Below, one piece after another: positions 2-23,087 of a DNA stretch of 32,000 nt (positions within the stretch are counted from its first letter, which is position 1; every line of letters starts with the position of its first letter). Source of the DNA: Halomicronema hongdechloris C2206. GTDB lineage: Bacteria; Cyanobacteriota; Cyanobacteriia; Phormidesmidales; Phormidesmidaceae. Both the position numbers and the translations under genes were made by a program. The stretch covers positions 1,500,001 through 1,532,000 of the forward strand of contig NZ_CP021983.2 in NCBI RefSeq assembly GCF_002075285.3, given 5' to 3'. Below the pieces are notes generated by a model, which had not been told where the DNA came from, searched no databases, and worked only from the letters and a program-made list of their open reading frames with translations.

Positions 2-1147
2 GCCCTACTGGAGGCGGCCCATCAGCGGGATATTCGTGTTGTCTTGGATGGCGTGTTTAATCACACCGGCCGCGGCTTTTTCTACTTCAACGACATTCTG
101 GAAAACGGTCCCCATTCTCCCTGGTTGGATTGGTTCAAGATCGAGGCCTGGCCCCTATCGGCCTACGATGGCTCCCTACCGGCCAACTATATTGGCTGGA
201 TCGGCAATCGGGCCCTGCCCGAATTTAACCACGATAACCCCGCCGTGCGGGAATACATCATGCGGGTGGGCGAACACTGGATTCGGGCCGGCATCGACGG
301 CTGGCGTCTGGATGTGCCCTTCGAGATAGCCACCGAGGGATTCTGGCAGGAATTTCGGCAACGGGTCAAGGCCCTTAACCCCGATGCCTATATCGTCGGG
401 GAAGTCTGGAAAGATGCTCGCCCCTGGCTAGATGGCACCCAGTTCGACGCGGTGATGAATTACCTGTTTACCGGCCCCACCATTGCCTATGTGGCTGGTC
501 CACGGGTGCAGATGGAATACGCAGAACTGCCCGATTATTATCCCTATCCGCCCCTCGATGCCCGAGGTTATGGAGACAAGATCCAACAGCTGCTGGAGCG
601 CTATCCCTGGGAGATTCAACTCAGCCAGCTGAACCTGCTGTCGAGCCATGACATTGCTCGGCTGTTATCGGTAGCTGGAGAGGACCAAGCCAGCTTAGCC
701 CTCGGCGTGCTATTGCAGATGACCTTCCCTGGAGCGCCCAGTGTCTACTACGGTGACGAGGTGGGCCTACCGGGGGGGCTCGATCCTGACTGTCGCCGCA
801 CCTTTCCCCCCCAAGCGCAGTGGAACCAAGAGATGCTGACCCTGCATCGAGGGCTGATTGCCCTGCGGCGAGCACATCCGGCCTTGCGAGTGGGGGGCTA
901 TGAGGTCTTAGCTGCTGAGGGAATGACCTATGTGTTCGCCCGGGTATTGCCCCAGGAACTCATCATCATTGCCGTGAATGCCGATGAGCAGCCCTCTCAA
1001 TTGACAGTGCCGTTTGCCCTGGATTGGTCTGAAGAGCTACCTCAGCAGCGGCTATTTGGTCAGGGCTCGGCCACCTGGCAACAGGGGACAGCCTCCCCCC
1101 AATTAGCCCTAGAGCTCCCGGCCCGCTCAGGATTAGTGCTGGGATAG
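2..1147 (+). CDS. GH13 alpha-amylase-family glycoside hydrolase (neopullulanase/cyclomaltodextrinase-like); N-terminus lies left of the window
   Basis: The frame is open from nt 2 and reads ALLEAAHQRDIRVVLDGVFNH (GH13 region I). Also present: GIDGWRLDVPFEI (region II, nucleophile Asp), YIVGEVW (region III, acid/base Glu) and LLSSHDIARL (region IV). The ATG at 44 is internal. Confidence 0.88.
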   Translation, partial: ALLEAAHQRDIRVVLDGVFNHTGRGFFYFNDILENGPHSPWLDWFKIEAWPLSAYDGSLPANYIGWIGNRALPEFNHDNPAVREYIMRVGEHWIRAGIDGWRLDVPFEIATEGFWQEFRQRVKALNPDAYIVGEVWKDARPWLDGTQFDAVMNYLFTGPTIAYVAGPRVQMEYAELPDYYPYPPLDARGYGDKIQQLLERYPWEIQLSQLNLLSSHDIARLLSVAGEDQASLALGVLLQMTFPGAPSVYYGDEVGLPGGLDPDCRRTFPPQAQWNQEMLTLHRGLIALRRAHPALRVGGYEVLAAEGMTYVFARVLPQELIIIAVNADEQPSQLTVPFALDWSEELPQQRLFGQGSATWQQGTASPQLALELPARSGLVLG

Positions 1148-1257
1148 GCTCCTGGGTATCTAGGGCCGGAGCTTGTCCGCGAGGACGGGGAAATTGGCGC
1201 TCTGCCTGATGCAACCACTGACCACTGCTCAAGGCCCACCCCAGTGCTAGCGTCAGG

Positions 1258-1530
1258 CTTACTCACGCGTTGAGCCTCCCGTAGATGAGTCGCTTTGAGG
1301 CAATATCTTCGGCTCTTGCAAATGCTAAAGCGGGTTCCGATGCCCCATCGATGGGCATAGTCGGCAATCGCTCGCTTCGACTTGAATTGCGTGACCCCAA
1401 TGAGCGGGGTACCGTCTTCCAAGCGCAAGGCGGCGACATAGCCCCACAGCCAGCGCTTTTTGCGTAGGACCTGAGGCTGAGCCGGCTGCAGATGGGCAAA
1501 GATTTTTGGCCGGCCGGCAGCGACGACCAT
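1258..1530 (-). pseudogene. C-terminal remnant of an IS4-family DDE transposase
   Basis: ORF 1060..1530(-) reads ...AIADYAHRWGIGTRFSICKSRRYCLKATHLREAQRVSK. This resembles the conserved IS4 C-terminal block Y-x2-RWxIE-x2-F-x2-LK-x-RGF-x-LE-x-THL. No N-terminal DDE part exists, because the next gene ends at 1561. The ORF tail overlapping the GH13 3' end is not homologous. Confidence 0.5.
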
Positions 1531-2884: not shown

Positions 2885-4174
2885 TTAAATAACTGTACCA
2901 TTTGGTAGAGTGGCGTCTTTGAGAACGGTGACAATGCCTTCGCGAATACAAAAGCCTTGCTTCTCGCAATCGGCTTCTTCAACCCGATCTTTATTGAGGA
3001 TTTTGACTTGGCAACCGATGCGAGCGTTCTTATCGATAATGGCGTTTTGAATGTCGCTGTGGCTGCCAATGCCTAACGGAACGGCATTGAGATCGCAATC
3101 GCTGCTGCGTTCAAAATCAGACTGATAATAGTCTGCTCCCATGACTAGGCTATTGCGCACTGTACAGCCGGAATCAATGCGAGTGCGGATGCCGATGACG
3201 GAGTTGTGAATTTCACAGTCCTTCAGGACGCAGCCTTCACTAATCATGGATTGAGTCACCTGACAGGCCAACTGTTTCGTCGGCGGCAAATAGCGGGCAC
3301 GGGTGTAAATGGGAGCATCGCGATCGTAGAAACTGAAGGGCGGATTGGGCTGTTTTACCAACGCCAAATTGGCATTGAAGAATGAATCAATGGTGCCAAT
3401 ATCTTCCCAATAGTCGTTGAAAAGATAGGCCTGTAAGTTAAATAAGTGTGCCGATCTCGGAATGATTTCCTTGCCAAAATCGGTGTATTCCGGTCGGCGA
3501 TTGAGCAACTCCATCAACACATTGCGCTTGAACACATAAATGCCCATCGAGGCAATGTAGGGCTTGATTTTGGCTTCCTCCGGTGACAATCCCAACGTCG
3601 TGGTGTCTACCTGCATGTGTCTCAAGGCTTCTCCGGTGGGTTTTTCGCTAAAGTCAACGATGCGCCCCTGACTGTTGATTTTCATCAGGCCAAAGCTGGA
3701 CGCCCGCTTTTCATCAATGGGTAAAACGGACAGTGTAATGTCAGCATTTGTCTCATGGTGATGCTGCACAAACTGTCGAAAATCCATGCGATATAAATGG
3801 TCACCCGACAGCACCAAATAATCATCCACATCCAGGTCACGAAATAACCAGAGATACTGTCTCACAGCATCTGCTGTTCCTTGAAACCATTGCTTGTTTT
3901 CAGGCGTTTGCTGCGCTGCCAAAACCTCAACAAAGCCCTGTTGAAATCCTGAAAATGCATAGGAACGCGAAATATGTTGATTCAGGGAGGCTGAATTAAA
4001 TTGCGTCAGCACATATATTTTTAAGACGTCCGAATTAATACAATTGCTAATCGGAATATCGATGAGGCGATGCTTTCCAGCCAGAGGCACAGCCGGTTTG
4101 GCGCGTACTTTTGTGAGCGGATATAAACGGGTCCCTGCGCCGCCGCCCAAGATGATGCCGAGTACTCTCTTCAC
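2885..4174 (-). CDS. glgC: Glucose-1-phosphate adenylyltransferase (ADP-glucose pyrophosphorylase)
   Basis: [48 protein letters not shown] is the canonical GlgC N-terminus. The C-terminus is a left-handed beta-helix. Length is 429 aa. GTG start is preceded by AGGAGG. Confidence 0.95.
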
Positions 4175-10889: not shown

Positions 10890-11618
10890 ATGTCTCGCCT
10901 AATTGACGCCGAACGGCTGCAGCGCATTGGGTTGTTTGCGGAGTTGGAGCCGTCGCTACTGGACTACTTAGCCGCCCAAAGTCAGCTGCTGACATATGCC
11001 CCCAACGAAAGTGTGTTTTATGAAGGGGATGCCTTACCAGCCTGTCTGTATCTGCTGGTGACCGGGAGCTTGCGTATTGCCAAGGTCGCCGACTCAGGCA
11101 AGGAGACCATTTTGCGACTGCTGCCTGCTGGAGAAGTGTTTGCCGCCCCCGCCCTGTTTGGCAATGGGCGAGCCCCAGCCACGGCGACGGCCATAGAGCC
11201 GGTCGAGGTGCTGACCGTGCAGCGGCAAGCCCTGCTAGAGGGGTTCCGTCAGGCCCCTGAGTTGGCATTGCATCTGTTAGTGGTGTTTAACCAGCGGTTG
11301 CAGCAACTGCATCATCGCGTGCATGGGCTGGCCTCAGAGCGAGCCATCGTGCGCTTGATTCACTACCTGGAACATTGCGCTGCCAACGCCGGCTTAGGAC
11401 CAGAACGGGAAGGAGAACCCAACCAGGCCGGTACACAATCCTTGCACCTCACCCATTACCAGATTGCCCGCAGCATCGGCATTACCTATGAAGAATGCGT
11501 GCGCCTATTTAAGCAGCTGAAACCTGCCGTCTCGTATCGGCGCGGTGGCAACGTTACCATCCTAGACTGGCAGCAGTTGCACGACATCGCCCAGCGCCAA
11601 TCTGAGGGAACGCTGTGA
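10890..11618 (+). CDS. Crp/Fnr-family transcriptional regulator
   Basis: The N-terminus is a cNMP-binding-like beta-roll (LFAELEPSLLDYLA...YEGDALPACLYLLVTGSLRIAKVADSGKETILRLLPAGEVFAAPALF). The C-terminus is an HTH (LTHYQIARSIGITYEECVRLFKQLK). It is divergent from the methyltransferase gene. Confidence 0.85.
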   Translation: MSRLIDAERLQRIGLFAELEPSLLDYLAAQSQLLTYAPNESVFYEGDALPACLYLLVTGSLRIAKVADSGKETILRLLPAGEVFAAPALFGNGRAPATATAIEPVEVLTVQRQALLEGFRQAPELALHLLVVFNQRLQQLHHRVHGLASERAIVRLIHYLEHCAANAGLGPEREGEPNQAGTQSLHLTHYQIARSIGITYEECVRLFKQLKPAVSYRRGGNVTILDWQQLHDIAQRQSEGTL

Positions 11619-11931: not shown

Positions 11932-13166
11932 GTGTTTTGTATGGTTCCCACCGACTCTCCCGCGACGTCGTCCCCTGCCTCGTTTCGGCAGCCAGGGCTG
12001 CACCGGTTCAAGGCCTTACTCAATCGATTGCGGCGCCGCACCCGCCGCTTTCTAACGGCCCATACCTTACCCCGCCTGGCAGATCGAGCCTGTCGGCTGT
12101 ATTGCCAAGGGGATGCCCAGGATAAGTGTCGGCGTTTGATGCGATCGCACATCCAGATCGATCCGCTGCAACTGCGTCGATTTTTTAGCACCTCCCTGGG
12201 CACCACCCTGTTGTCCTGGTTTGAGGAATTCTTTCATCTGCCGGCAGCCCAGGCTAGTCACGATAAAGAAGCGACAGTGGGTAACCTGCTGGTGCAGATG
12301 ATGGCAGACCCGGAGGGGGTGTCCCTGCTCACCCTGATGCGTCGCTTCCCCAAGACCGTGCAGATTAACCTGGACCAGTTACTGCTGACGGCTAAGCGGG
12401 TACAGCTGCTGCTGCAGGAAACCGAAGCCACCATCGATACCATTCGCGAGCTAGCAGCCATTGAGGCGGCGGCAGACCCCCCCGCGACCTTTGCCTCAGT
12501 CCCCGATCTACGGCAACCTGGTCCCTTCGCCATCGAGCAATCTACCCTGACGGTCGATCAGGGCGATGGAGACTGCCGCTGCTGCTTGCAGGTGGTCTGC
12601 TACCGGCCCCAGCCCCTGGCCCGGGAGTCCCGTACCCCTGGTGCTGCAATCCCATGGCCTCGCCTCCAGCCCAGAAGACCTGGAGAGCTATAGCCGTCAT
12701 CTGGCTTCCCACGGCTACTTCGTGGCCGTTCCCTGCCATGGTGGCAGCGATGTCAATCAGGTCCGGGCCATGCTGGCTGAGAACGGCCCACCGCTACCTA
12801 GCGGTGATGCATGGTCGCTCCCACATCCGCGATATGCAGCGCTTGATCCGGGGCCTGAATCTGAAGCTGCAAGGGCTGCCCCAGCTGCCTGCGAGCCAGG
12901 CGGAGACCCCCTTCGAGGGCTATACCAATGCCCTGATCCTGGCCTTTTTTCAGCAGTATTTGACGCCAATGGCTGCCCCGTCTTCCTACCTCAGGGCCAG
13001 TTATGCCGCCCACCTCAGTCAACCACCCTGCGATCTCTGGTTGATTGGCCCCGCCTCCGGCCAGGCCCTGGCGGAACGGCTGCAGGCTCTGGATTTGAGT
13101 CTGGTGACGGAGTTGATGGAATTCACGGCAGCCGCCGCCGATGACATCGAAAAGACGGGTGGTTGA
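11932..13166 (+). pseudogene. Decayed DUF1400 + dienelactone-hydrolase-type alpha/beta hydrolase gene (two frame changes and an internal deletion)
   Basis: Homology runs through three frames. Frame 1 holds DUF1400-like FSTSLGTTLLSWF...MADPEGVSLLTLMRRFPKTVQINLDQLLL...VPDLRQPGPFAIEQSTLTV. Frame 2 holds PLVLQSHGLASSPEDLESYSRHLASHGYFVAVPCHGGSDVNQVRAML. Frame 3 holds RYLAVMHGRSH...EGYTNALILAFFQQYL...YLRASYAAHLSQPP. The GHSxGG nucleophile region expected between the frame-2 and frame-3 blocks is missing. Confidence 0.6.
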
Positions 13167-14128
13167 GGCATAGCGGCAGCGTAGTGAACGATTGGAGGGA
13201 CCGGATCATGGGCCACGGTGAAGGGCGATTCAGCGGCGCGGATGGACTAGAGCTGTACTATCAGAGTTGGTATCCGGCCCCACCCATGCAGGCGGTTGTC
13301 GGGGTGGTACATGGCCTGGGCAGCCACGGCGGCCAGTTTACAACCGTGGTAGAGGGTCTGGTGACCGCTGGCTATGGCGTGTATGCCCTCGATCTGCGGG
13401 GCCACGGGCGCTCTCCCGGGCAGCGAGGATATATCCAGAGCTGGGGGGAATTCCGCCAGGATGTGCAGGCGTTCCAGCAGCGGATGGCCGCCTATCATCC
13501 TCAGCTTCCCTGTTTTCTATTGGGCCATAGCCTGGGGGCGATTATCCTGCTAGATCATGGCCTCCACTCTCCCCGGTTGTGGGTGGCAGATCCTAGCCTG
13601 GGCCGCCTGGGGGGCGTGATTGTCCTGGCCCCGGCCATCGGCCCGGTGGGGGTGTCGCCCTTGAAACTAGCTATTGGTAAGATCCTGTCCTGGTTATGGC
13701 CCCGCTTCACCCTGGATACCGGTATTCCGGAAGAGGCTGGCTCCCAGGATGCGGCGGTGGTGGCTGCCTACAGCGAGGATCCGCTGCGCCACCGCAAGGG
13801 CACGGCTCGCCTAGTGACGGAATTTATGCAGACGACTCAATGCCTACGGACGGATGTGAGGTGTTTTCCGGTACCATTGCTGATTTTGCAGGGTAGCCAA
13901 GACCGGGTAGCTCTGCCCCAGGGGAGTCGGCGGTTCTACCAGCAGCTGCAGTGGGGTGATGTGGAGTATCGAGAATATGCTGGCGCCTACCATGATCTGC
14001 ATAATGACGTCGTGGCAACTCAGGTAACGGCCGATATTTTGGAGTGGCTGGGGCGCCATCGCGGCATGCAACCCTGGTGTTATCGTCCCAATCTGTGCGA
14101 CCTAACCCGGTCCCGGGAAATAGGTTAG
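13163..14128 (+). CDS. Alpha/beta hydrolase, lysophospholipase / monoacylglycerol-lipase-like
   Basis: VGVVHGLGSHGGQFTTVVEGLVTAGYGVYALDLRGHGRS, nucleophile elbow LLGHSLGAI, and C-terminal AGAYHDLHND (catalytic His). The 13163 start is TTG. The ATG at 13208, preceded by GGAGGGA, is the more likely start. Confidence 0.85.
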   Translation: MRHSGSVVNDWRDRIMGHGEGRFSGADGLELYYQSWYPAPPMQAVVGVVHGLGSHGGQFTTVVEGLVTAGYGVYALDLRGHGRSPGQRGYIQSWGEFRQDVQAFQQRMAAYHPQLPCFLLGHSLGAIILLDHGLHSPRLWVADPSLGRLGGVIVLAPAIGPVGVSPLKLAIGKILSWLWPRFTLDTGIPEEAGSQDAAVVAAYSEDPLRHRKGTARLVTEFMQTTQCLRTDVRCFPVPLLILQGSQDRVALPQGSRRFYQQLQWGDVEYREYAGAYHDLHNDVVATQVTADILEWLGRHRGMQPWCYRPNLCDLTRSREIG

Positions 14129-14658
14129 CAATAACTACAAAGGAGTGCTGGGATTTCGACACCTAGTCGGTAGCTAATAGATACTAATGTTGGTGAGGCC
14201 ATCCAATTTGATTGGCTGGGGATAACTGTAAATGTACTGGGATGGGGAATAGACCGATACTATAATTTCAGCCCTTTACGCGGCTGGCTATCTCCATCGA
14301 AACCTGAAGAACCGTTAGAAAACTTCGTATTGACAAGAATGTTGACTGCGATCCCCAGGGAGTAATGGGTAGCCAAAACCCTATAAAAATAGGGATCCCG
14401 ACCGTTGGTTGTTAATTTTAGTTGTTACAAAAGTTGTTTGCGATACATGTCGATTGTGGGTGAGGTCAAGACGAGAAAGCTATACTAAAACTTAGAAGAA
14501 AAAGCCATCTATCTACATTATTCCAGGGCTTTTATTGCCGTATTAACGGATGCATTGAGGGATGTACTGAGGGATTTATCTCTCGACTTATAACCTGAAC
14601 AAATCCGATCAAAATGCCTGGAAAGGCTCCAATTCTAGAGCCGGACTTGGCATTACTC

Positions 14659-15056: not shown

Positions 15057-17123
15057 ATGGTCTCTGTCCCAACCATCTACTTTGCGTCCCTGCCGCCGGG
15101 GGATCTAATGAAAGCGATGACCTTGCTAGACCTGTTAGATCGAGCCTGCGATCGCACCCCCCATGATCAGGCCATCGGCCACTGGCAGCAGGGAGCCTGG
15201 CGGTTCCTGTCTAATCAGGCCCTGCGTACCGCTGCCGAAGAGGTGGCGTTGGGGTTGCACCAGGTGGGGCTACAGCGAGGAGACCGGGTGGCCCTGGTCA
15301 TGCACAGCCATGTCGACTTTGCGATCGCAGATCTAGGCTGTCTGCTGGCCGGGGTGGTGGACGTGCCCATCGACTTGACCCAGACCATCGAAAACATCCT
15401 GTTCATTGTGCAACATACCGAGGCCAAGGCCCTAATTATCTCGGACTTGGACCTGCTATATCAGCTGTTGCCCTACGTCTGGGAAGCCCCCAGTCTGCAA
15501 ACGGTGGTGGTGGCCCAGGTGCCGGAACCATGGGGGGAGGTGCGGCGGGGATTAATGGCAGCGGGAGACGGGGCTGATATTGGGCCGCTGCCGCCGCCAC
15601 AAGCCTGCTTGCAGATTCCCCACTTCCTCTGCGATAGCCAAGGGGGGCAGCCCTGTGCGGCGGTGCCATTACCCCAGTGCGTAAGCCTATATGCCCTGAA
15701 AGAGCTGCGGCAGTGGGGGCGCCAAACCTGGTCCCAGCAGGCAGTGATCAGCCTACGCCAGGCCATCCATCCTGAGGATGTGGCCACCATTCTCTACATC
15801 GCCAGCGACGGCTGGCGGCCCCACGGAGTAGTGCTCAGCCATGGCAATATCACTGCCAATGTGCTGGCGGCATTCTCCAGCTATCCGGATCTGCGCCCTG
15901 GTCCAGACGAGGTGGCACTACTGTTTCTGCCCCTGACCCACATTTTTGCCCGGGTATTTTTGTATGGTCACTTAGCCTATGGTCACAGCATTTATCTGTC
16001 CGATGCCAACCATTTGCTGAAACATCTGCGGCGGGTACAGCCCACCATTTTGATCACGGTGCCGCGGCTGTTGGAGAAACTGCACGAGCGCATTCTGGAG
16101 GCAGGCACCCACTTGGGTCGTTTCGATCAGGCGGTGTTGCGCTGGGCCCTGGGCCTGGGGCGACGGTTTCAGCCGGGGCAATCGCCCCAGGGACTCTATC
16201 GTCTGCAGTTGCAATTAGCCACGCGGTTGGTCTTTCATCGCTGGCGGATGTTGTTTGGCGGCCGCTTGCGGGCCTGCATCTGCGGCGGCGCTGCCCTGCG
16301 ACCAGAGCTGACCCGCCTATTTTCGGCGGCGGGAGTGCCAGTGCTGCAGGGCTATGGCCTCACAGAGGCGAGTGGGGTGCTGGCCTATAACCGCGGCCCC
16401 TACCAGCAGGCTGGTACCGTAGGGCTGCCGATTCCAGGGGCAGAGGTGGCCATCGGCGCCGATGGCGAGATCCTGGTGCGGGGGCCGTTTGTCATGCCGG
16501 GCTACTACCGGGATCCAGAAGCAACCGGCCAGGTCCTGGAGCCCGACGGCTGGCTGCATACGGGAGACTTAGGCAGCCTCTCCCCGGAGGGATTGCTCAC
16601 CATTACCGGGGTGAAAAAAGCCCGCTTCAAACTGTCTACCGGCAAGTATGTGTCGCCCCAGCCCTTGGAGGCCGAGATGATGCGATCGCAGCTGGTGGCC
16701 CATGCCATTGCCGTCGGCGCCAACCATAAGTTTTGCGGCATGTTGATTGTGCCAAATTGGGCCGTTCTCGCAGACCATGCCCAAGAGTGGGACCTGGATT
16801 TAAGCCAGCCCGATCGCTGTCGCCAGTCTCGCCTGCTCGGGATTTACCAGCGCCTGATCGATGCCGCTAACTGTCATCTACCCTACTGGTCTACAGTGCG
16901 CAGATTTCGGCTATTAGCGACCGAGTTGACCCGAGAAAACGGCCTGCTGCGGCCAGACGGCCAGGTAGACCGGCAGGCCGTCTGGAGACACTTTGCCACC
17001 GAGATTGCCGAGTTGTATGGGGACCAACCCATGCCTGAGGACCAGGCAGGAGATGAGATATCGACAGCAGATGCATCGACCCTCGGGGCCGAGCCTGTCC
17101 GGTGTATGCGCGAACATCGTTAA
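15057..17123 (+). CDS. Long-chain acyl-CoA synthetase-like AMP-dependent ligase (degenerate P-loop motif)
   Basis: Adenylate-forming core motifs are present: LFLPLTHIF, LQGYGLTEASGV, WLHTGDLG and GVKKARFKLSTGKYVSP. The expected YTSGTTGxPKG motif reads YIASDGWRPHG. The likely start is the ATG at 15108 (MKAMTLLDLLDRA), preceded by GGGGGA. Confidence 0.8.
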   Translation: MVSVPTIYFASLPPGDLMKAMTLLDLLDRACDRTPHDQAIGHWQQGAWRFLSNQALRTAAEEVALGLHQVGLQRGDRVALVMHSHVDFAIADLGCLLAGVVDVPIDLTQTIENILFIVQHTEAKALIISDLDLLYQLLPYVWEAPSLQTVVVAQVPEPWGEVRRGLMAAGDGADIGPLPPPQACLQIPHFLCDSQGGQPCAAVPLPQCVSLYALKELRQWGRQTWSQQAVISLRQAIHPEDVATILYIASDGWRPHGVVLSHGNITANVLAAFSSYPDLRPGPDEVALLFLPLTHIFARVFLYGHLAYGHSIYLSDANHLLKHLRRVQPTILITVPRLLEKLHERILEAGTHLGRFDQAVLRWALGLGRRFQPGQSPQGLYRLQLQLATRLVFHRWRMLFGGRLRACICGGAALRPELTRLFSAAGVPVLQGYGLTEASGVLAYNRGPYQQAGTVGLPIPGAEVAIGADGEILVRGPFVMPGYYRDPEATGQVLEPDGWLHTGDLGSLSPEGLLTITGVKKARFKLSTGKYVSPQPLEAEMMRSQLVAHAIAVGANHKFCGMLIVPNWAVLADHAQEWDLDLSQPDRCRQSRLLGIYQRLIDAANCHLPYWSTVRRFRLLATELTRENGLLRPDGQVDRQAVWRHFATEIAELYGDQPMPEDQAGDEISTADASTLGAEPVRCMREHR

Positions 17124-17129
17124 TGGGTC

Positions 17130-19316
17130 ATGGAGGACATCACCATGCATAAGCCATTCCGTACTGCCGCCGTGCTGGGGGCCGGGGTCATGGGGGCGCA
17201 GATTGCCGCCCATCTGGCCAATGCCGGTCTGACGGTGCACCTGCTGGACTTGCCAGGGAAGTCAGAACATCCCAATGACCTGGTGGAAGCGGCCTTCCAG
17301 AAGGCTAAAACCATGTCGCCGCCGATTTTCTACAGCCAGCAGGCGATGCAGCGGGTGATCCTGGGCAACTATGCCCAGCACTTCCAGCGCCTGGCCCAGG
17401 TGGACTGGGTGATCGAAGCGGTGGTGGAAAATCTGACGGTGAAGCAGGAATTGATGGCACGGCTGGAAAAAACCGTGGCGGCAGACGCGGTGATCTCCAC
17501 CAATACCAGTGGCCTGTCGATTCGGGCCATCGCCCGGGGCCGCTCCCAGAGCTTCCGCCGGCGGTTTTTGGGCACCCATTTCTTTAACCCACCTCGCTAT
17601 TTGAAGTTATTGGAACTGATTCCCACCGCTGACACCGAGCCGCAGCTGGTCGAGCGCCTGGCTAAGTTTAGCCGCTTGCGCCTAGGCAAGGGCATCGTGG
17701 TGGCCAAGGACACTCCCAACTTCATCGCCAACCGCATCGGCGTGTTTGTCTCCATGCTGGGGATTCGGGCCTTTACCGAGGGCGACTACACCATTGAGGA
17801 GATCGACACCCTCACGGGCACCCTGGTGGGGCGGCCCAAGTCGGCTACCTTCCGCACCGCCGATCTGGTGGGGCTGGATACCTTGCTGTACGTGGCTGAT
17901 AACCTCTACGCGGCCATCCCCCAGGATGAGCGCCGGCAGTGGTTCCAGATGCCAGAGCTATGCCGCCAGCTGGTGGAAACCGGTAGCCTCGGGGCCAAGT
18001 CGGGTCAGGGCTTCTACAAGAAGGTGGCTGGGGAAATTCGCTCCCTCAATCCCGACACCTTTGGCTATGAGGCACCCCGACCAATGCGGCTGGGCAATTT
18101 GGACACTATCGAGCAGCAGCCGGATCTGGGAGACCGGCTGCGCAGCCTCTACCGCCATCGGAGCCGAGCCGGTGACTTCTGCCGCCACTTGACCTTGGAA
18201 ACCTTGGCCTACAGCGCCAACCGGATTCCAGAAATTACCGATGACCCTAGGGCCATTGACCAAGCCCTGTGCTGGGGCTTTGGCTGGCAGTTGGGTCCCT
18301 TTCAGATCTGGGATGCCCTGGGATTTGACCTGGTGATTGAGGATATGCGCATGGCCGGGCTGTCCTTGCCAGCCTGGATCGAGACCATGCAGACCCGGGG
18401 GGCGACGGGCTTCTATGGGCCTGGCCCCAGTGTCTACCGGCCAGGAGAGGGCTATGTGGCCTGGCAGAAACCCGTCGATGAGCTGCACTTGGCTGAGATG
18501 ACGGCGGCTTCTCAAGCGACTCTCTGGCACAACCGTGAGGCCGCCCTGCTGGATCTGGGGGATGGGGTGGCGCTGCTGGAGTTTCGCTCTAAGGCCAATA
18601 CCCTCAGCACTCAGGTGATCGAGGGACTGGAGATGGCCCTGACGTGGCTGGCCAGCCACGATGATTACCACGGTTTGGTGATCGGCAATGAGGGGCCGAA
18701 CTTCTGCGTCGGCATCAACCTGGCGGAGGTGGGCAAGATCGCCCAGTGGGACAATCTGAATCCGTTTAGTCGCACCACGGTGCGAATCGCACAACTCCTG
18801 AGCCGCTTCCAAACCCTGATGCAGCAGATTCACTATTTCCCCAAGCCGATCGTGGCCGCCATTCAGGGGGGGGTCCTAGGAGGGGGGTGCGAGCTAGCCA
18901 TGGCCTGTCCCCAGGTGGTAGCCGCCGCCGAGACCTATATGGGCCTGGTGGAACTAGGTGGGCCTGATCCCGGCCGGGGGCGGCCTAATGGGCCTGCCCG
19001 CTGGGCTGCTAACCGGGCGATCACGCAGCATGCCAGCGATATTCTGCCCTGGCTGCAGCAGGCCTTTAAGACCGTGGGCATGGCTACCGTGGCCACTAGC
19101 GCCTACGAAGCCCAGGCGCTGGGATTCCTGAACCCCCAGGCTCAGGTGGTGATCAACAGTGACCGCCGCCTGTATGTGGCCAAGCAGGCAGTGCTTTGCC
19201 TGCATCACCGCGGCTATGCCCACCGCCGCGGCAGCCGATTCCGGTGCTGGGCAACCGGCCCGACCACCCTGGAGCACATGGCCTATGTGATGTACGAGGG
19301 CGGTTACATCAAGTGA
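17130..19316 (+). CDS. fadN: FadN-type bifunctional 3-hydroxyacyl-CoA dehydrogenase (N-terminal) / enoyl-CoA hydratase (C-terminal), frame-disrupted near the 3' end
   Basis: Rossmann motif AVLGAGVMGAQIAAHLANAG, HAD core THFFNPPRYLKLLELIP and DTPNFIANRIG, and ECH part KPIVAAIQGGVLGGGCELAMA...ETYMGLVELG. The ATG at 17145, preceded by GGAGGA, is the likely start. Conserved motifs near 18958-18996 and 19220-19258 are encoded out of frame. The stop at 19314-19316 is created by a 1-nt frame change, and the true C-terminus continues to 19506. Confidence 0.85.
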   Translation: MEDITMHKPFRTAAVLGAGVMGAQIAAHLANAGLTVHLLDLPGKSEHPNDLVEAAFQKAKTMSPPIFYSQQAMQRVILGNYAQHFQRLAQVDWVIEAVVENLTVKQELMARLEKTVAADAVISTNTSGLSIRAIARGRSQSFRRRFLGTHFFNPPRYLKLLELIPTADTEPQLVERLAKFSRLRLGKGIVVAKDTPNFIANRIGVFVSMLGIRAFTEGDYTIEEIDTLTGTLVGRPKSATFRTADLVGLDTLLYVADNLYAAIPQDERRQWFQMPELCRQLVETGSLGAKSGQGFYKKVAGEIRSLNPDTFGYEAPRPMRLGNLDTIEQQPDLGDRLRSLYRHRSRAGDFCRHLTLETLAYSANRIPEITDDPRAIDQALCWGFGWQLGPFQIWDALGFDLVIEDMRMAGLSLPAWIETMQTRGATGFYGPGPSVYRPGEGYVAWQKPVDELHLAEMTAASQATLWHNREAALLDLGDGVALLEFRSKANTLSTQVIEGLEMALTWLASHDDYHGLVIGNEGPNFCVGINLAEVGKIAQWDNLNPFSRTTVRIAQLLSRFQTLMQQIHYFPKPIVAAIQGGVLGGGCELAMACPQVVAAAETYMGLVELGGPDPGRGRPNGPARWAANRAITQHASDILPWLQQAFKTVGMATVATSAYEAQALGFLNPQAQVVINSDRRLYVAKQAVLCLHHRGYAHRRGSRFRCWATGPTTLEHMAYVMYEGGYIK

Positions 19317-19506
19317 CTACGACCGGGCCCTGGCCAATCGTCTGGCCTATGTCCTCAGCGGTGGCGATCTGACGGTGCCGGCATCGGTAGACGAGGACTA
19401 TCTGCTGGGCCTGGAGCGGGATAATTTTCTGCCCCTCATCGACGAGGCCAAGACCAAGGAGCGGATCCTGCATCTGCTGAAGACGAAGAAGCCGTTGAGG
19501 AATTGA
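19312..19506 (+). pseudogene. Detached C-terminal 64 codons of the FadN-type gene (frame +1 relative to the upstream ORF)
   Basis: This frame reads SDYDRALANRLAYVLSGGDLTVPASVDEDYLLGLERDNFLPLIDEAKTKERILHLLKTKKPLRN-stop. That is the canonical FadN/FadB C-terminal tail (…YLLxLERExF…KTxxRIxxxLxTxKPLRN). It ends 2 nt before the thiolase ATG at 19509. Confidence 0.65.
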
Positions 19507-19548
19507 CCATGGAAACCGCCTATATCGTCAAGCGCCGTCCGCACGGCG

Positions 19549-20697
19549 GTGGGCAAGGCCCCCCGGGGCACCCTGCGCCATACCCGCCCGCAGGATTTGG
19601 CCGTGGCAGCGGTGCGGGGAGCCTTGGCCCGAGTGCCGCAGCTGGTGTCTAACCAGATCGAGGATGTGATCCTGGGCTGTGCCATGCCCGAGGCAGAGCA
19701 GGGGTACAACCTGGGCCGGTTAGTAGCCCTGGGGGCGGGGTTGCCGGAGTCTGTCCCCGGGTGCACGGTGAACCGGCTGTGTTCCTCCGGGTTGCAGACC
19801 ATTGCCATGGCCACCCAGGCGGTGGCCTGGGGCCAGGCCCAGGTGATCGTAGCCGGTGGGGTCGAGTCCATGAGCCTGATTCCCATGGGAGGGCACCAGT
19901 TTTCTCCCCATGCCGAGCTGTTTGAGAAGCTGCCCCAGGCCTACATCACCATGGGCCTGACGGCAGAGAAGGTGGCGGAGCAGTTTCAGATTCCCCGCCC
20001 GGACCAGGATGCCTTCGGGTTGCGATCGCATCAGCGAGCCCTGGCCGCCATCGCCGCCGGTAAATTCAAGGACGAAATCGTCCCCGTCACCGTGCGAGAG
20101 ACCCACTACATCGATGGGCAACCTCAGACCCAGGACATCATCTTCGACACCGATGAAGGCCCCCGGACCGACACCAGCCTGGAGGCCCTGGCCCAGTTGC
20201 AGCCGGTGTTTAAGGCCAATGGCACCGTGACTGCGGGTACCTCGTCCCAGATGTCCGATGGAGCTGCCGCCACCCTGGTCATGGGGGAAAGCGCCATGGA
20301 GGCCCTGGGGATTCAGCCCCTGGCCCGACTGCTGGCCTTTGCCGTGGTGGGGGTTGCCCCTGAGATCATGGGCATTGGTCCGGTGATGGCGGTGCCCCAG
20401 GCCCTAGAGCAGGCGGGCTTGACTCTGGCCGACATCGACCTGATCGAACTGAATGAGGCCTTCGCCAGCCAGGCCCTGGCCGTGATCAAAGAGCTAGGCC
20501 TGAACTCGGAGATCGTCAACGTCAACGGTGGCGCCATCGCCCTGGGCCATCCCCTCGGTTGCACTGGGGCCAAACTCACTGCCACTTTGCTGCATGAGAT
20601 GCGCCGCCGTCGGGTCCGCTACGGCCTAGTCACCATGTGTGTCGGTGGCGGCATGGGGGCGGCAGGCATCTTTGAAAATCTGGCTCTGGAGGGTTAA
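19549..20697 (+). CDS. fadA: Acetyl-CoA C-acyltransferase (3-ketoacyl-CoA thiolase); N-terminal 13 codons are displaced into another frame
   Basis: NRLCSSGLQ (active-site Cys), NEAFASQ and [11 protein letters not shown]...CVGGGMG. The ATG at 19509 gives METAYIV, after which one extra A at 19530/19531 shifts the frame. Without it the sequence reads [22 protein letters not shown], the standard thiolase N-terminus. Confidence 0.9.
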
Positions 20698-20699
20698 CC

Positions 20700-23087
20700 A
20701 TGGTGCTGTTGATTGGGCTCAGTCTACTGCTGGCGTTGGTGCTGGTGTTCACCGTCCCGTTCTTACGGCGGCCCCTGATCAGCCGCTGGATTATGCGGGG
20801 AATTCGGGCCATGAAGCTACTGCCCCGCATTTCCGACACCGAGCGAGCCGCCATCGAAGCCGGCAATGTCTGGATAGAAGGGGAGTTTTTCACCGGCCAG
20901 CCCAATTTCGGGCGCATGTTGCAAGAGCCCTATCCAGAGTTGCCGCCAGCGGTGCAGGCATTTTTGCAGGGGCCGGTGGAGCAGGTCTGTGAGCTGGCTA
21001 GCGATTGGCAGATCTACCAGGGTAAGGACCTGCCACCTCAGGTCTGGCAGTACCTGAAGCAAGAGAAATTCTTCGGGTTGATGATTCCAGAGGAGTTTGG
21101 TGGCCTGGGCTTTTCCAACCTGGCCTACAGCGCCGTCATGGTGAAGCTGGCATCCCGCTCCTTTTCCTATGTGGCCACGGTGGGGGTGGCCAATTCTCTG
21201 GGGCCGGCCAAATTGCTGCTGCGCTACGGCACCCCGGAGCAAAAGGCCCGCTACCTGCCCCGGTTGGCCATCGGCGAGGAGATCCCCTGCTTTGCCTTGA
21301 CCGAACCCATGGCAGGCTCCGATGCGGCCAATCTATCGTCCCGCAGGCGAAGTATTCCAAGCAGAAGACGGTCAGCTCTACCTGCGGCTGAACTGGCAGA
21401 AGCGTTATATCACCCTGGGTGCGAGTTCGCAACTCTGTTGGGCCTGGCCTTCCGTCTCTATGATCCGGAGAATCTACTGGGCAAAGGCACCGAGTGGGGC
21501 ATTACCTGTGCCCTGGTGCCCACGCACCTGCCGGGGGTGCATCTGGATCGCCGCCACGACCCCATGGGGGTGCCCTTCTTCAACTCCCCCACCGAGGGCC
21601 ATGATGTCATCCTGCCAGTTGATCAGATTATTGGCGGCGTGGCGCAGGCCGGTCAGGGCTGGAAGATGTTAATGCAGACCTTGGCTGCCGGTCGCGGCAT
21701 CAGCTTCCCGGCTACCTGCAGTGGGGTGGCTCAGTTGGTGAGCCGAGTGACCAGTGCCCACGCCGTGGTGCGACAGCAGTTTGGCCTCTCCATTGGTCGC
21801 TTCGAGGGGATTGAGGCCCCCCTGGCCCGGATTGCCGGCCTCACCTATATCATTGATGCCACTCGCCATTACACCTGTGGGGCAGTCGACAAGGGGGAAC
21901 AGCCCGCGGTGGTTAGTGCGATCGCAAAATATACCACCACAGAACTGGCCCGCCAGATCATCAACGACGGCATGGATATCATGGGCGGGTCTGGCATCTG
22001 TCGTGGTCCCCACAACCTGCTGGCCCATATCTACACCGCTACCCCCATTTCCATCACCGTGGAAGGAGCCAACATCCTCACCCGTACCCTGATGATCTTT
22101 GGTCAGGGCGCCATCCGCTGCCATCCCTACCTCTACGGTGAGATCCAGGCCCTGGAGGCTGGCGATCTAGTCAACTTCGATCGACTGTTGTGGCGACACT
22201 TGGGCACCTTCTTGATGAATGGCCTACGCAGCCTGGGCCTGAGCCTGACCCAGGGGCAGCTTGTGTCCCCGCCAGTGCCAGGCCCCACCGCCCGCTACTA
22301 CCGCAAACTGACCTGGGCCGCCGCCCTGTTTGCCTGGCTCACCGATATTGCCCTGCTAGGCTACGGCGGTCGCCTCAAGCGCCAGGAAAATCTCACCGGT
22401 CGCTTCGCCGACGTTCTGTCCTGGCTCTACCTGGCCACCGCCACCCTACGTCGCTACCATGCCGAGGGCCAGCGCTCCGAGGCCCTGCCCCTGGTGGAGT
22501 GGTCCCTGCAGCATAGCCTGGCTCAGATCCAACAGGCCTGCCAAGGGGTGCTGAGCAACCTAGAGGTACCCATCGTCGGTAGCCTACTGCGCTGGACGCT
22601 ACTGCCCTGGTTGCGCCTCAATCCCATCGGTACCCCACCAGCCGATGAGCTAGGGAGTAACGTGGCTCAGGCCTTGCAACGGCCTGGAACCCTACGCCAG
22701 CACCTAACCGCAGGCATCTACGTCCCCTCAGACCCAGAGCAGGCCCTGGGCCGTTTGGACCATACCCTAGCCCAGGTACATCAAGCTGAGGCCATTCTGC
22801 GGAAGGTCAAAGGGGCAATAGCGGTCGGTCAATTACCTGCAGGCAAACCCCTACAGCGTCTGGACACTGCCCACGCCCAGCATCTAATTACTACCGCCGA
22901 ATATGCCTTAGTCAAGGAAGCGGCAGCCCTACGTTTGGCAGCAATTCAAGTGGATGCCTTCACCCTGGAGGAATACGAAGCCATTGGCATACCAGCAAAG
23001 CAGGGCAAGGCTGATTCAACGCTATTGACGACTTTTGCCAACACCTCGAACTGCAATGGCAACGAGCTTGCGCCAGTGACCAGATGA
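20700..23087 (+). CDS. fadE: FadE-type large acyl-CoA dehydrogenase (N-terminal TM anchor, ACAD core, DUF1974-like C-terminus), with an internally out-of-frame segment
   Basis: 795 aa. Collinear with E. coli FadE as I remember it: GQGWKMLMQTLAAGRGISFPA, ITVEGANILTRTLMIFGQGAIRCHPY and GGRLKRQENLTGRFADVLSWLYLA. Between about 21335 and 21427 the conserved block ...LRLNWQKRYITLGA is encoded in frame +1 (ORF 21322..21672). Confidence 0.85.
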   Translation: MVLLIGLSLLLALVLVFTVPFLRRPLISRWIMRGIRAMKLLPRISDTERAAIEAGNVWIEGEFFTGQPNFGRMLQEPYPELPPAVQAFLQGPVEQVCELASDWQIYQGKDLPPQVWQYLKQEKFFGLMIPEEFGGLGFSNLAYSAVMVKLASRSFSYVATVGVANSLGPAKLLLRYGTPEQKARYLPRLAIGEEIPCFALTEPMAGSDAANLSSRRRSIPSRRRSALPAAELAEALYHPGCEFATLLGLAFRLYDPENLLGKGTEWGITCALVPTHLPGVHLDRRHDPMGVPFFNSPTEGHDVILPVDQIIGGVAQAGQGWKMLMQTLAAGRGISFPATCSGVAQLVSRVTSAHAVVRQQFGLSIGRFEGIEAPLARIAGLTYIIDATRHYTCGAVDKGEQPAVVSAIAKYTTTELARQIINDGMDIMGGSGICRGPHNLLAHIYTATPISITVEGANILTRTLMIFGQGAIRCHPYLYGEIQALEAGDLVNFDRLLWRHLGTFLMNGLRSLGLSLTQGQLVSPPVPGPTARYYRKLTWAAALFAWLTDIALLGYGGRLKRQENLTGRFADVLSWLYLATATLRRYHAEGQRSEALPLVEWSLQHSLAQIQQACQGVLSNLEVPIVGSLLRWTLLPWLRLNPIGTPPADELGSNVAQALQRPGTLRQHLTAGIYVPSDPEQALGRLDHTLAQVHQAEAILRKVKGAIAVGQLPAGKPLQRLDTAHAQHLITTAEYALVKEAAALRLAAIQVDAFTLEEYEAIGIPAKQGKADSTLLTTFANTSNCNGNELAPVTR

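Follow-up and report, generated by a model that had tools for sequence, protein, structure and literature searches.

A conserved gene cluster, probably for lipid breakdown, in the cyanobacterium Halomicronema hongdechloris and the probable nature of its frame breaks

Introduction

Do some cyanobacteria carry the genes for fatty-acid breakdown by beta-oxidation, and what has become of them in Halomicronema hongdechloris? That cyanobacteria lack the pathway is a statement of the literature (PMC10114076, PMC11730487, PMC8252387). In a 2023 review, classical beta-oxidation gene sets are described as 'never reported in cyanobacteria' (PMC10114076), a 2025 paper states that fadB, fadE and fadI are not contained in cyanobacteria (PMC11730487), and the absence of the pathway underlies labelling strategies for natural-product discovery (PMC8252387). 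The question is raised by a 32,000-nucleotide (nt) stretch of the H. hongdechloris C2206 genome (contig NZ_CP021983.2, positions 1,500,001 to 1,532,000; hereafter the window), in which four genes at 15057–23087 encode an acyl-coenzyme A (CoA)-synthetase-like ligase, a FadN-type dehydrogenase/hydratase, a 3-ketoacyl-CoA thiolase (FadA) and a FadE-type acyl-CoA dehydrogenase. An initial annotation, made from the sequence alone, had set this operon against the general description of cyanobacteria as lacking beta-oxidation and proposed that the lineage either retains an unusual capacity for fatty-acid degradation or is losing it. The answer reached here is that the region is quite probably the copy, in H. 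hongdechloris, of a cyanobacterial lipid-breakdown cluster that is old and vertically inherited, and that its small insertions and deletions (indels) are most likely errors of the assembly.

Gene content and layout of the cluster

Open reading frame (ORF) listing and domain searches placed four ORFs on the plus strand between 15057 and 23087: the ligase (15057–17123, 688 amino acids (aa)), the FadN-type protein (17130–19316, 728 aa), the thiolase (19549–20697, 382 aa) and the FadE-type protein (20700–23087, 795 aa). The description of these as four co-directional beta-oxidation-type genes was borne out by the ORFs and by the Pfam and NCBIfam matches. In a protein search the FadE and ligase ORFs were 100% identical to H. 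hongdechloris C2206 proteins, in agreement with the cyanobacterial background proposed initially. The published annotation of this genome already covers the four genes as XM38_014270–014300 (PMC6416890). XM38_014280 is listed in the published proteome table as '3-hydroxyacyl-CoA dehydrogenase', XM38_014290 as 'fadA 3-ketoacyl-CoA thiolase' and XM38_014300 as 'fadE acyl-CoA dehydrogenase', with beta-oxidation Gene Ontology terms attached to XM38_014270–014300 (PMC6416890). The order of entries in that table is the order found in the window, from alpha-amylases through a rebM methyltransferase, a cAMP-binding regulator and two hypotheticals to XM38_014270–014300. The operon is of a known beta-oxidation type, already annotated in its source genome and with a published light-regulated ortholog; the cluster has been noticed before, and it is its breadth that is under-appreciated.

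The reference used for indels was locus L001, a 467-kb metagenome contig from the closest relative, in which the operon DNA is 84.5% identical. The L001 operon is intact, with a ligase of 706, a FadN of 788, a thiolase of 395 and a FadE of 780 aa, spaced by −8, +2 and +2 nt. Uninterrupted frames are not found in the deposited H. hongdechloris operon, and corrected gene ends are needed because about 10 frame-breaking indels lie in its four genes when it is compared with this intact relative. Gaps of 6, 2 and 2 nt had been claimed between the genes. As annotated, 6 nt separate the ligase stop from the first FadN ATG; the thiolase–FadE gap is 2 nt, and that between FadN and thiolase is 2 nt only with frame correction (FadN stop 19504–19506, thiolase ATG 19509). 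The first of these gaps did not stand in the same way, as the tail-corrected ligase, with a predicted end at 17152, more likely overlaps the FadN start at 17145 by 8 nt, like its counterpart in L001.

Predicted proteins of the core operon

The ligase (15057–17152, annotated end 17123, plus strand) contains the Pfam domains AMP-binding and AMP-binding_C_3 and shows 87% identity to its 706-aa L001 ortholog. A 1-nt deletion near 17093 shifts its conserved C-terminal tail, ACPVYAR.SL..HGGHHH, out of frame, and the tail is recovered in frame 2. The canonical ATP-binding P-loop of ANL enzymes is YTSGTTGxPKG. That of the ligase is degenerate (YIASDGWRPHG, window 15819–15854, residues about 255–266) and varies across orthologs from 58 loci (YIASETKRPKG, YIPGATGEPQG and others), while the other ANL core motifs GYGLTE, TGD and KLSTGKY are kept. 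The ligase scored below the cut-off for every specific NCBIfam FadD model, the best being FadD11 (200 vs 950); the score with the FadD model itself was 127 against a cut-off of 884. With a degenerate P-loop and no FadD model passed, the product of the ligase (CoA or acyl carrier protein (ACP) as acceptor) is therefore uncertain. Its relatives in the PDB are distant only, and a protein search with the ligase returned cyanobacterial orthologs only, the closest non-cyanobacterial relatives not being revealed by it.

The FadN gene extends from 17145 to 19506 on the plus strand, the annotated ORF (17130–19316) being truncated. Its Pfam domains 3HCDH_N (13–195), 3HCDH (198–297) and ECH (from 479) lie on one polypeptide, which is the arrangement that defines FadN-type proteins, with only half an ECH domain present in the raw ORF. 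The closest NCBIfam match was the Firmicutes-type dehydrogenase/crotonase 'Staph_FadB' (NF052272), of which the corrected protein covers positions 4–752 of 752 with 622.7 bits, compared with 515 for the raw ORF. Both scores are under the curated equivalog cut-off of 999 bits, but the model is of the 'exception' type and bears the name of Staphylococcus FadB, so that a score under so high a cut-off has little bearing on whether the protein is FadN-type.

The thiolase (19509–20697, plus strand; Thiolase_N and Thiolase_C) has its true ATG at 19509 (METAYIV), and a +1 insertion at about 19530 moves the annotated start to a GTG at 19549. The corrected protein, 90% identical to that of L001, carries NRLCSSG, NEAF and GHPLGCTG as its catalytic Cys, His and Cys motifs and covers the whole TIGR01930 profile with 468 bits against a cut-off of 240.55, which places it with the degradative thiolases; FadA equivalog models were missed (419 vs 519). 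The FadE-type long acyl-CoA dehydrogenase (20700–23087, plus strand) contains the Pfam domains Acyl-CoA_dh_N, _M, _1 and ACDH_C and belongs to the PRK09463 subfamily (940 bits raw and 998 corrected, cut-off 600). Its raw middle domain matches positions 1–20 of 97 only, owing to a frameshift pair: the insertions of +1 at 21344 and +2 at 21425 scramble about 27 residues, as seen in an alignment with five orthologs, and an alternative frame restores GEVFQAEDGQLYLRLNWQKRYITLGA. The E. coli FadE equivalog NF038187, which requires 1300 bits, was not reached (775 raw, 816 corrected). The hydrophobic N-terminus, MVLLIGLSLLLALVLVFTVPFL, is consistent with a membrane anchor, as had been suggested for this protein.

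Distribution and descent in cyanobacteria

The distribution scan used one genome per species and gave 283 stretches with FadE relatives, the best 80 of which (59–71% identity) were examined. Essentially all of these 80 loci are from cyanobacteria, in many orders. The order ligase–FadN–thiolase–FadE was kept in about 55 species representatives of the 283 FadE-bearing stretches, that is, in nearly every locus with enough upstream DNA, and FadN and thiolase were full length and in a single segment. The 80 loci come from Leptolyngbya-like lineages, Nodosilinea, Elainellales, Oculatella and Stenomitos; in the Nostocales (Calothrix, Fischerella, Chlorogloeopsis, Scytonematopsis); in Chroococcidiopsis and the Pleurocapsales (Xenococcus, Pleurocapsa, Hydrococcus); and in Acaryochloris, Thermosynechococcaceae, Symploca and Prochloraceae. 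Among long loci, L032 (Altericista sp. CCNU0014) alone departs from the conserved order, its FadE having no ligase, FadN or thiolase within 10 kb upstream. Judged by gene content and order, the window holds a member of a conserved cyanobacterial lipase/beta-oxidation cluster that is not unusual among large-genome filamentous cyanobacteria. Retention as an oddity of one lineage, one of the two initial proposals, does not agree with the same gene order in about 55 other cyanobacterial species; the species scan showed such operons to be largely common and intact in the phylum.

A neighbour-joining tree of FadN, FadA and FadE, the kind of tree called for initially to separate vertical from horizontal origin, sorted the sequences into the cyanobacterial orders, and the branches of the window and of L001 were equally long. 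The highly iterated palindrome HIP1 (GCGATCGC) occurs in the operon at 15148, 15321, 16682, 20022 and 21918, exactly as had been claimed, and the whole window has 17 copies where 0.5 are expected. Five copies in the 8.0-kb operon compare with 10 in the 14.1 kb upstream, a density like that of native DNA, and across loci the median was 1.29 per kb in operons and 0.8 per kb in flanks. The tree by order, the host-like HIP1 density and a guanine-plus-cytosine (GC) excess that is universal to these operons point to inheritance that is old and vertical, with losses, and speak against recent import.

Import from a non-cyanobacterial donor was considered because of GC content, which is 0.62 in the operon and 0.56 in the flanks (about 5 points over the upstream flank), and the resemblance of FadN to Firmicutes-type and of FadE to proteobacterial-type enzymes could be read in the same way. 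However, operon GC lies about 4 points (median) above the flanks in every cyanobacterial locus examined, HIP1 density is host-like here and elsewhere, all of the top 120 FadE matches with a source name and essentially all of the top 80 genome loci are cyanobacterial, and the tree follows cyanobacterial taxonomy. A recent horizontal transfer is thereby extremely improbable and was rejected, in line with the initial view that the operon is not a fresh import.

Locus L063 (JAAUUT010000127.1) is filed under 'Candidatus Gracilibacteria'. It carries a complete operon, has HIP1 23 times in 16 kb, clusters with Hydrococcus, and is most likely a mis-binned cyanobacterial contig.

Frame breaks in the deposited sequence

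Relative to L001, indels with lengths that are not multiples of three are located in the ligase at 17093 (−1), in FadN at 18958 (−2), 18991, 19219, 19249 and 19263 (−1 each) and 19311 (+1), in the thiolase at 19530 (+1) and in FadE at 21344 (+1) and 21425 (+2). In the hydratase domain of FadN, 11 and then about 15 residues are scrambled, and the deposited protein ends 62 residues before the true end at 19506; these 62 C-terminal residues, VGLIPAGGGLM and GEVFQAEDGQLYLR are among the segments of the operon proteins that frame correction restores. Short homopolymers underlie several of the indels.

A relative-rate test was carried out at conserved sites with the frame-corrected window proteins, L001 and 35–80 cyanobacterial outgroups. 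Lineage-specific replacements numbered 46 in the window and 47 in L001, and the window lineage is therefore not accelerated. When the 142 out-of-frame codons were compared with L001 in their original frame, 29 had synonymous-only and 8 had amino-acid-changing differences, and identity was 94.4% in these codons vs 86.8% elsewhere in the genes. By this pattern, purifying selection acted on the out-of-frame segments in their original frame up to practically the present. A single internal stop is left in the corrected proteins, in the C-terminal tail of FadE, which is not conserved and aligns poorly. Groups of indels that sum to a multiple of three were also considered as proof of selection on real mutations and rejected, as only 3 of 5 groups did so, which is not significant (binomial ~0.21).

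The assembly combined 17x 454, 14x PacBio RS and 41x 36-bp Solexa data, joined manually, and its authors reported chimeric PacBio reads and small misassemblies (PMC6416890). The small indels are probably consensus errors of this 2019 hybrid assembly; that they are real but very recent is distinctly less likely. With consensus errors as the most likely source of the indels, the living strain probably has an intact operon. Exact-pattern scans of metagenome contigs for near-identical strains covering the indel sites found nothing.

Two of the insertions interrupt palindromes containing CGATCG. The insertion at 21425–21426 gives GCGA[GT]TCGC at a site where L001 has an intact HIP1, and that at 17113–17115 gives GCGCG[AAC]ATCG. 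These could be early-PacBio errors at methylated sites or real events at HIP1.

Upstream hydrolases and candidate regulatory elements

The lysophospholipase-like hydrolase described just upstream of the operon was found at 13163–14128 on the plus strand. It is an intact alpha/beta-hydrolase of the Hydrolase_4 family (monoacylglycerol-lipase/lysophospholipase-like; PF12146, E = 2.7e-62) with a GHSLG motif in its translation, and orthologs with 46–60% identity lie on the same strand 1–2 kb 5' of the ligase in 37 cyanobacterial loci. A second, disrupted alpha/beta-hydrolase gene of the DUF1400 type (Pfam) precedes it at 11932–13166 (plus strand) and is split over three frames by one frameshift and a deletion of ~460 nt. 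A tblastn search with the 554-aa ortholog of locus L006 recovered residues 7–237 in frame +1, 234–289 in frame +2 and 443–537 in frame +3, so that ~153 residues (290–442 of that ortholog) are missing, including the GYSFG nucleophile elbow with the catalytic serine motif. Intact DUF1400 orthologs are located 5' of the operon in 12 other loci, and neither hydrolase gene is present in the closest relative, L001. The conserved unit is accordingly one or two lipases with the four core genes, and the DUF1400 hydrolase gene may have truly decayed.

Further upstream, at 10890–11618 on the plus strand, a CRP/FNR-family regulator (cNMP_binding and HTH_Crp_2) has a counterpart in the corresponding place of L001, an ortholog with 86% identity, and no match in the other 80 loci. 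As it is common only to the closest relative, it was rejected as a conserved part of the cluster; it is a possible candidate for a regulator of the cluster it adjoins.

The spacer between the hydrolase and the ligase contains, about 600 nt before the ligase, a conserved non-coding block, TTGTTACAAAAGTTGTTTGCGATACAT (14422–14448, plus strand), followed by a −10-like TATACT hexamer at 14481–14486, together a candidate operator/promoter. The core of the block is identical in L001 (about 3610–3680) inside an otherwise poorly conserved spacer and near-identical in Nodosilinea-group loci, and a TTTGCGA core was found at a similar distance in ~17 of the 59 upstream regions examined, Nostocales included. 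Across loci the block sits 320–930 nt 5' of the ligase start, with TATACT/TATAAT ~36 nt further downstream (L017, L021, L026, L049, L070, L020, L023 and L027, and also L028, L034, L053, L062, L074 and L081), and TTTGCGA(A/T)A is the core common to Nodosilinea-like lineages through Nostocales. The segment 14422–14486 is a candidate control site for the operon, which would then have an unusually long leader of ~570 nt. A scan of 13–24 kb for promoter and terminator consensus sequences gave no more sites than shuffled sequence, leaving the operon ends undefined, and an Rfam scan of the whole window found no families.

Expression and proposed function

In H. hongdechloris, FadN (XM38_014280) was detected by three tandem-mass-tag peptides, with a log2 far-red/white ratio of +0.73 and of +1.02 after a shift from white to far-red light (PMC6416890). 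Ho et al. (2019) described UYEDRAFT_05553–05556 of Chlorogloeopsis fritschii PCC 9212 as 'enzymes required for beta-oxidation', and these genes were up ~10-fold in far-red light and 15- to 70-fold in rfpBC mutants (PMC6424891).

In the proposed scheme, one or two alpha/beta-hydrolases would free fatty acids from membrane (lyso)lipids, and the divergent acyl-CoA-synthetase-like ligase would activate them. The membrane-associated FadE, the hydratase/dehydrogenase FadN and the thiolase FadA would then run a beta-oxidation cycle to acetyl-CoA, with expression rising under limiting light energy, for example after a far-red shift, probably for the recycling of thylakoid lipids. Within this scheme we infer the substrates, a ligase product with CoA (not with ACP or AMP), the acceptor of electrons from FadE and the actual flux. 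That the vertically inherited lipase and ligase–FadN–FadA–FadE cluster gives working beta-oxidation, switched on under energy limitation (far-red light), in a large subset of cyanobacteria is somewhat favoured over the contrary; the subset would take in many Leptolyngbya-like, Nodosilinea, Nostocales, Pleurocapsales, Chroococcidiopsis and Acaryochloris lineages. If this is true, reviews err for the operon-bearing lineages in stating that the phylum has no beta-oxidation genes. A complete, syntenic and selectively maintained cluster is in any case present in dozens of species, whereas reviews of 2023 and 2025 still deny beta-oxidation genes, and its expression in one transcript study and one proteome makes the question of cyanobacterial beta-oxidation directly testable in culturable strains.

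Alternative explanations

Several observations weigh against a vertically inherited lipid-breakdown cluster that is intact and at work in this strain. The indels are confined to the cluster, with full-length domain matches in ~8.5 kb of neighbouring genes (all seven genes in 1–11.6 kb have them), and the ~460-nt DUF1400 deletion is no base-calling error; together these fit real decay. Ligase, thiolase and FadE were without peptides in the proteome in which FadN alone was detected (PMC6416890). The ligase is divergent, its P-loop degenerate and all specific FadD models below cut-off, and the cluster contains no genes for an electron-transfer flavoprotein (ETF) or ETF-quinone oxidoreductase. Labelling studies in other cyanobacterial strains argue against beta-oxidation (PMC8252387), although the wording of Figueiredo et al. 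implies that some cyanobacteria do carry it out (PMC8252387), and no biochemical or tracer evidence for the pathway is known from any cyanobacterium. The cluster might truly be in the course of loss, with real and recent inactivating indels, for example from slow-growing photoautotrophic culture, forming a young pseudogene array. At least 11 frame-breaking events and the ~460-nt deletion all fall within 11.9–21.4 kb between intact neighbours, both hydrolase genes are gone from the closest relative, three of the four core proteins were undetected in proteomics, and some indels lie away from homopolymers. At usual bacterial substitution/indel ratios, however, ~10 indels should accompany dozens of substitutions. 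The window lineage has no excess of amino-acid replacements (46 vs 47), the synonymous-dominated pattern persists in the original frame of the out-of-frame segments, and nonsense substitutions are absent after correction except for the one stop in the non-conserved FadE tail; moreover, the FadN protein is made and responds to light, and the assembly technology is prone to indels. Loss is consequently an unlikely explanation: the second initial proposal, that the operon is being lost, is possible for this strain but not favoured, as protein constraint is not relaxed and the 2019 hybrid assembly is error-prone. For H. hongdechloris the frame damage is probably a matter of assembly quality, and caution is needed before gene loss is inferred.

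It is also conceivable, but less probable than loss, that the substrate is a special one (acids derived from hydrocarbons or phytol, for example, or signals derived from lipids) or that the cluster runs in the reverse, synthetic direction. The atypical ligase (degenerate P-loop, no FadD model passed) and the lack of linked ETF genes would suit such a role, as would tracer work suggesting little fatty-acid breakdown in the cyanobacteria tested (PMC8252387). The strains used in that work were, however, mostly without the operon, though a Fischerella strain was also used (PMC8252387). FadE, a long-chain enzyme like that of E. coli, is over the curated cut-off, two lipase-like hydrolases are linked to the operon in many species, and the operon is induced when lipid synthesis is reduced in far-red light (PMC6424891), all of which speak for the breakdown of ordinary fatty acids instead.

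Comparison with known systems

One of the closest described systems is UYEDRAFT_05553–05556 of C. fritschii PCC 9212, like the window operon a four-gene cyanobacterial cluster described as encoding beta-oxidation enzymes and with far-red induction (seen here for FadN). The sister strain PCC 6912 (L030) has the same ligase–FadN–thiolase–FadE order, with 62–70% identity to the window in FadN, thiolase and FadE and ~42% in the ligase; the presumed equivalence of UYEDRAFT_05553–05556 with L030 was judged from the number of genes, their description and the locus in PCC 6912. Chlorogloeopsis differs in belonging to the order Nostocales and in its intact frames. The three-gene order is also that of fadN-fadA-fadE in Bacillus subtilis (FadR regulon; PMC5397183), in which FadN likewise has dehydrogenase before hydratase. 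The window FadE, at ~800 aa, is E. coli-like with ACDH_C and not of the Bacillus type (NF058590, 88 bits only), and, unlike in B. subtilis, a ligase is fused into the operon and neither a TetR-type FadR nor etfBA is nearby. The E. coli fad regulon (FadD, FadE, FadBA) provides the same four chemical steps, and E. coli FadE shares its subfamily with the window protein (PRK09463/PRK13026 passed) and also has a hydrophobic N-terminus. The E. coli genes are dispersed, however, FadB has hydratase before dehydrogenase, the E. coli FadE-specific model was missed by the window FadE (816 vs 1300), and the ligase is not FadD-like (127 vs 884).

The cyanobacterial acyl-ACP synthetase Aas, the enzyme of a recycling route, likewise starts from free fatty acids, belongs to the ANL superfamily and is similar in length to the operon ligase. 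It attaches fatty acids to ACP so that they are used again and not broken down, and has the canonical P-loop YTSGTTGxPKG where the operon ligase has YIASDGWRPHG.

Neighbouring regions of the window

Downstream of the operon, the segment 24000–32000 has a GC content of 0.37–0.46 compared with about 0.56, and a single HIP1. It encodes on the minus strand a group-1 glycosyltransferase, a phosphodiesterase-family protein and several unassigned proteins, and has the look of an island for cell-surface polysaccharides whose compositional history differs. At the other end of the window, a 156-aa ORF at 1060–1530 (minus strand), with no Pfam match, lies between amylase-family and DJ-1/PfpI genes; read by eye, its sequence suggests the C-terminal end of a transposase, and it is possibly an insertion-sequence remnant.

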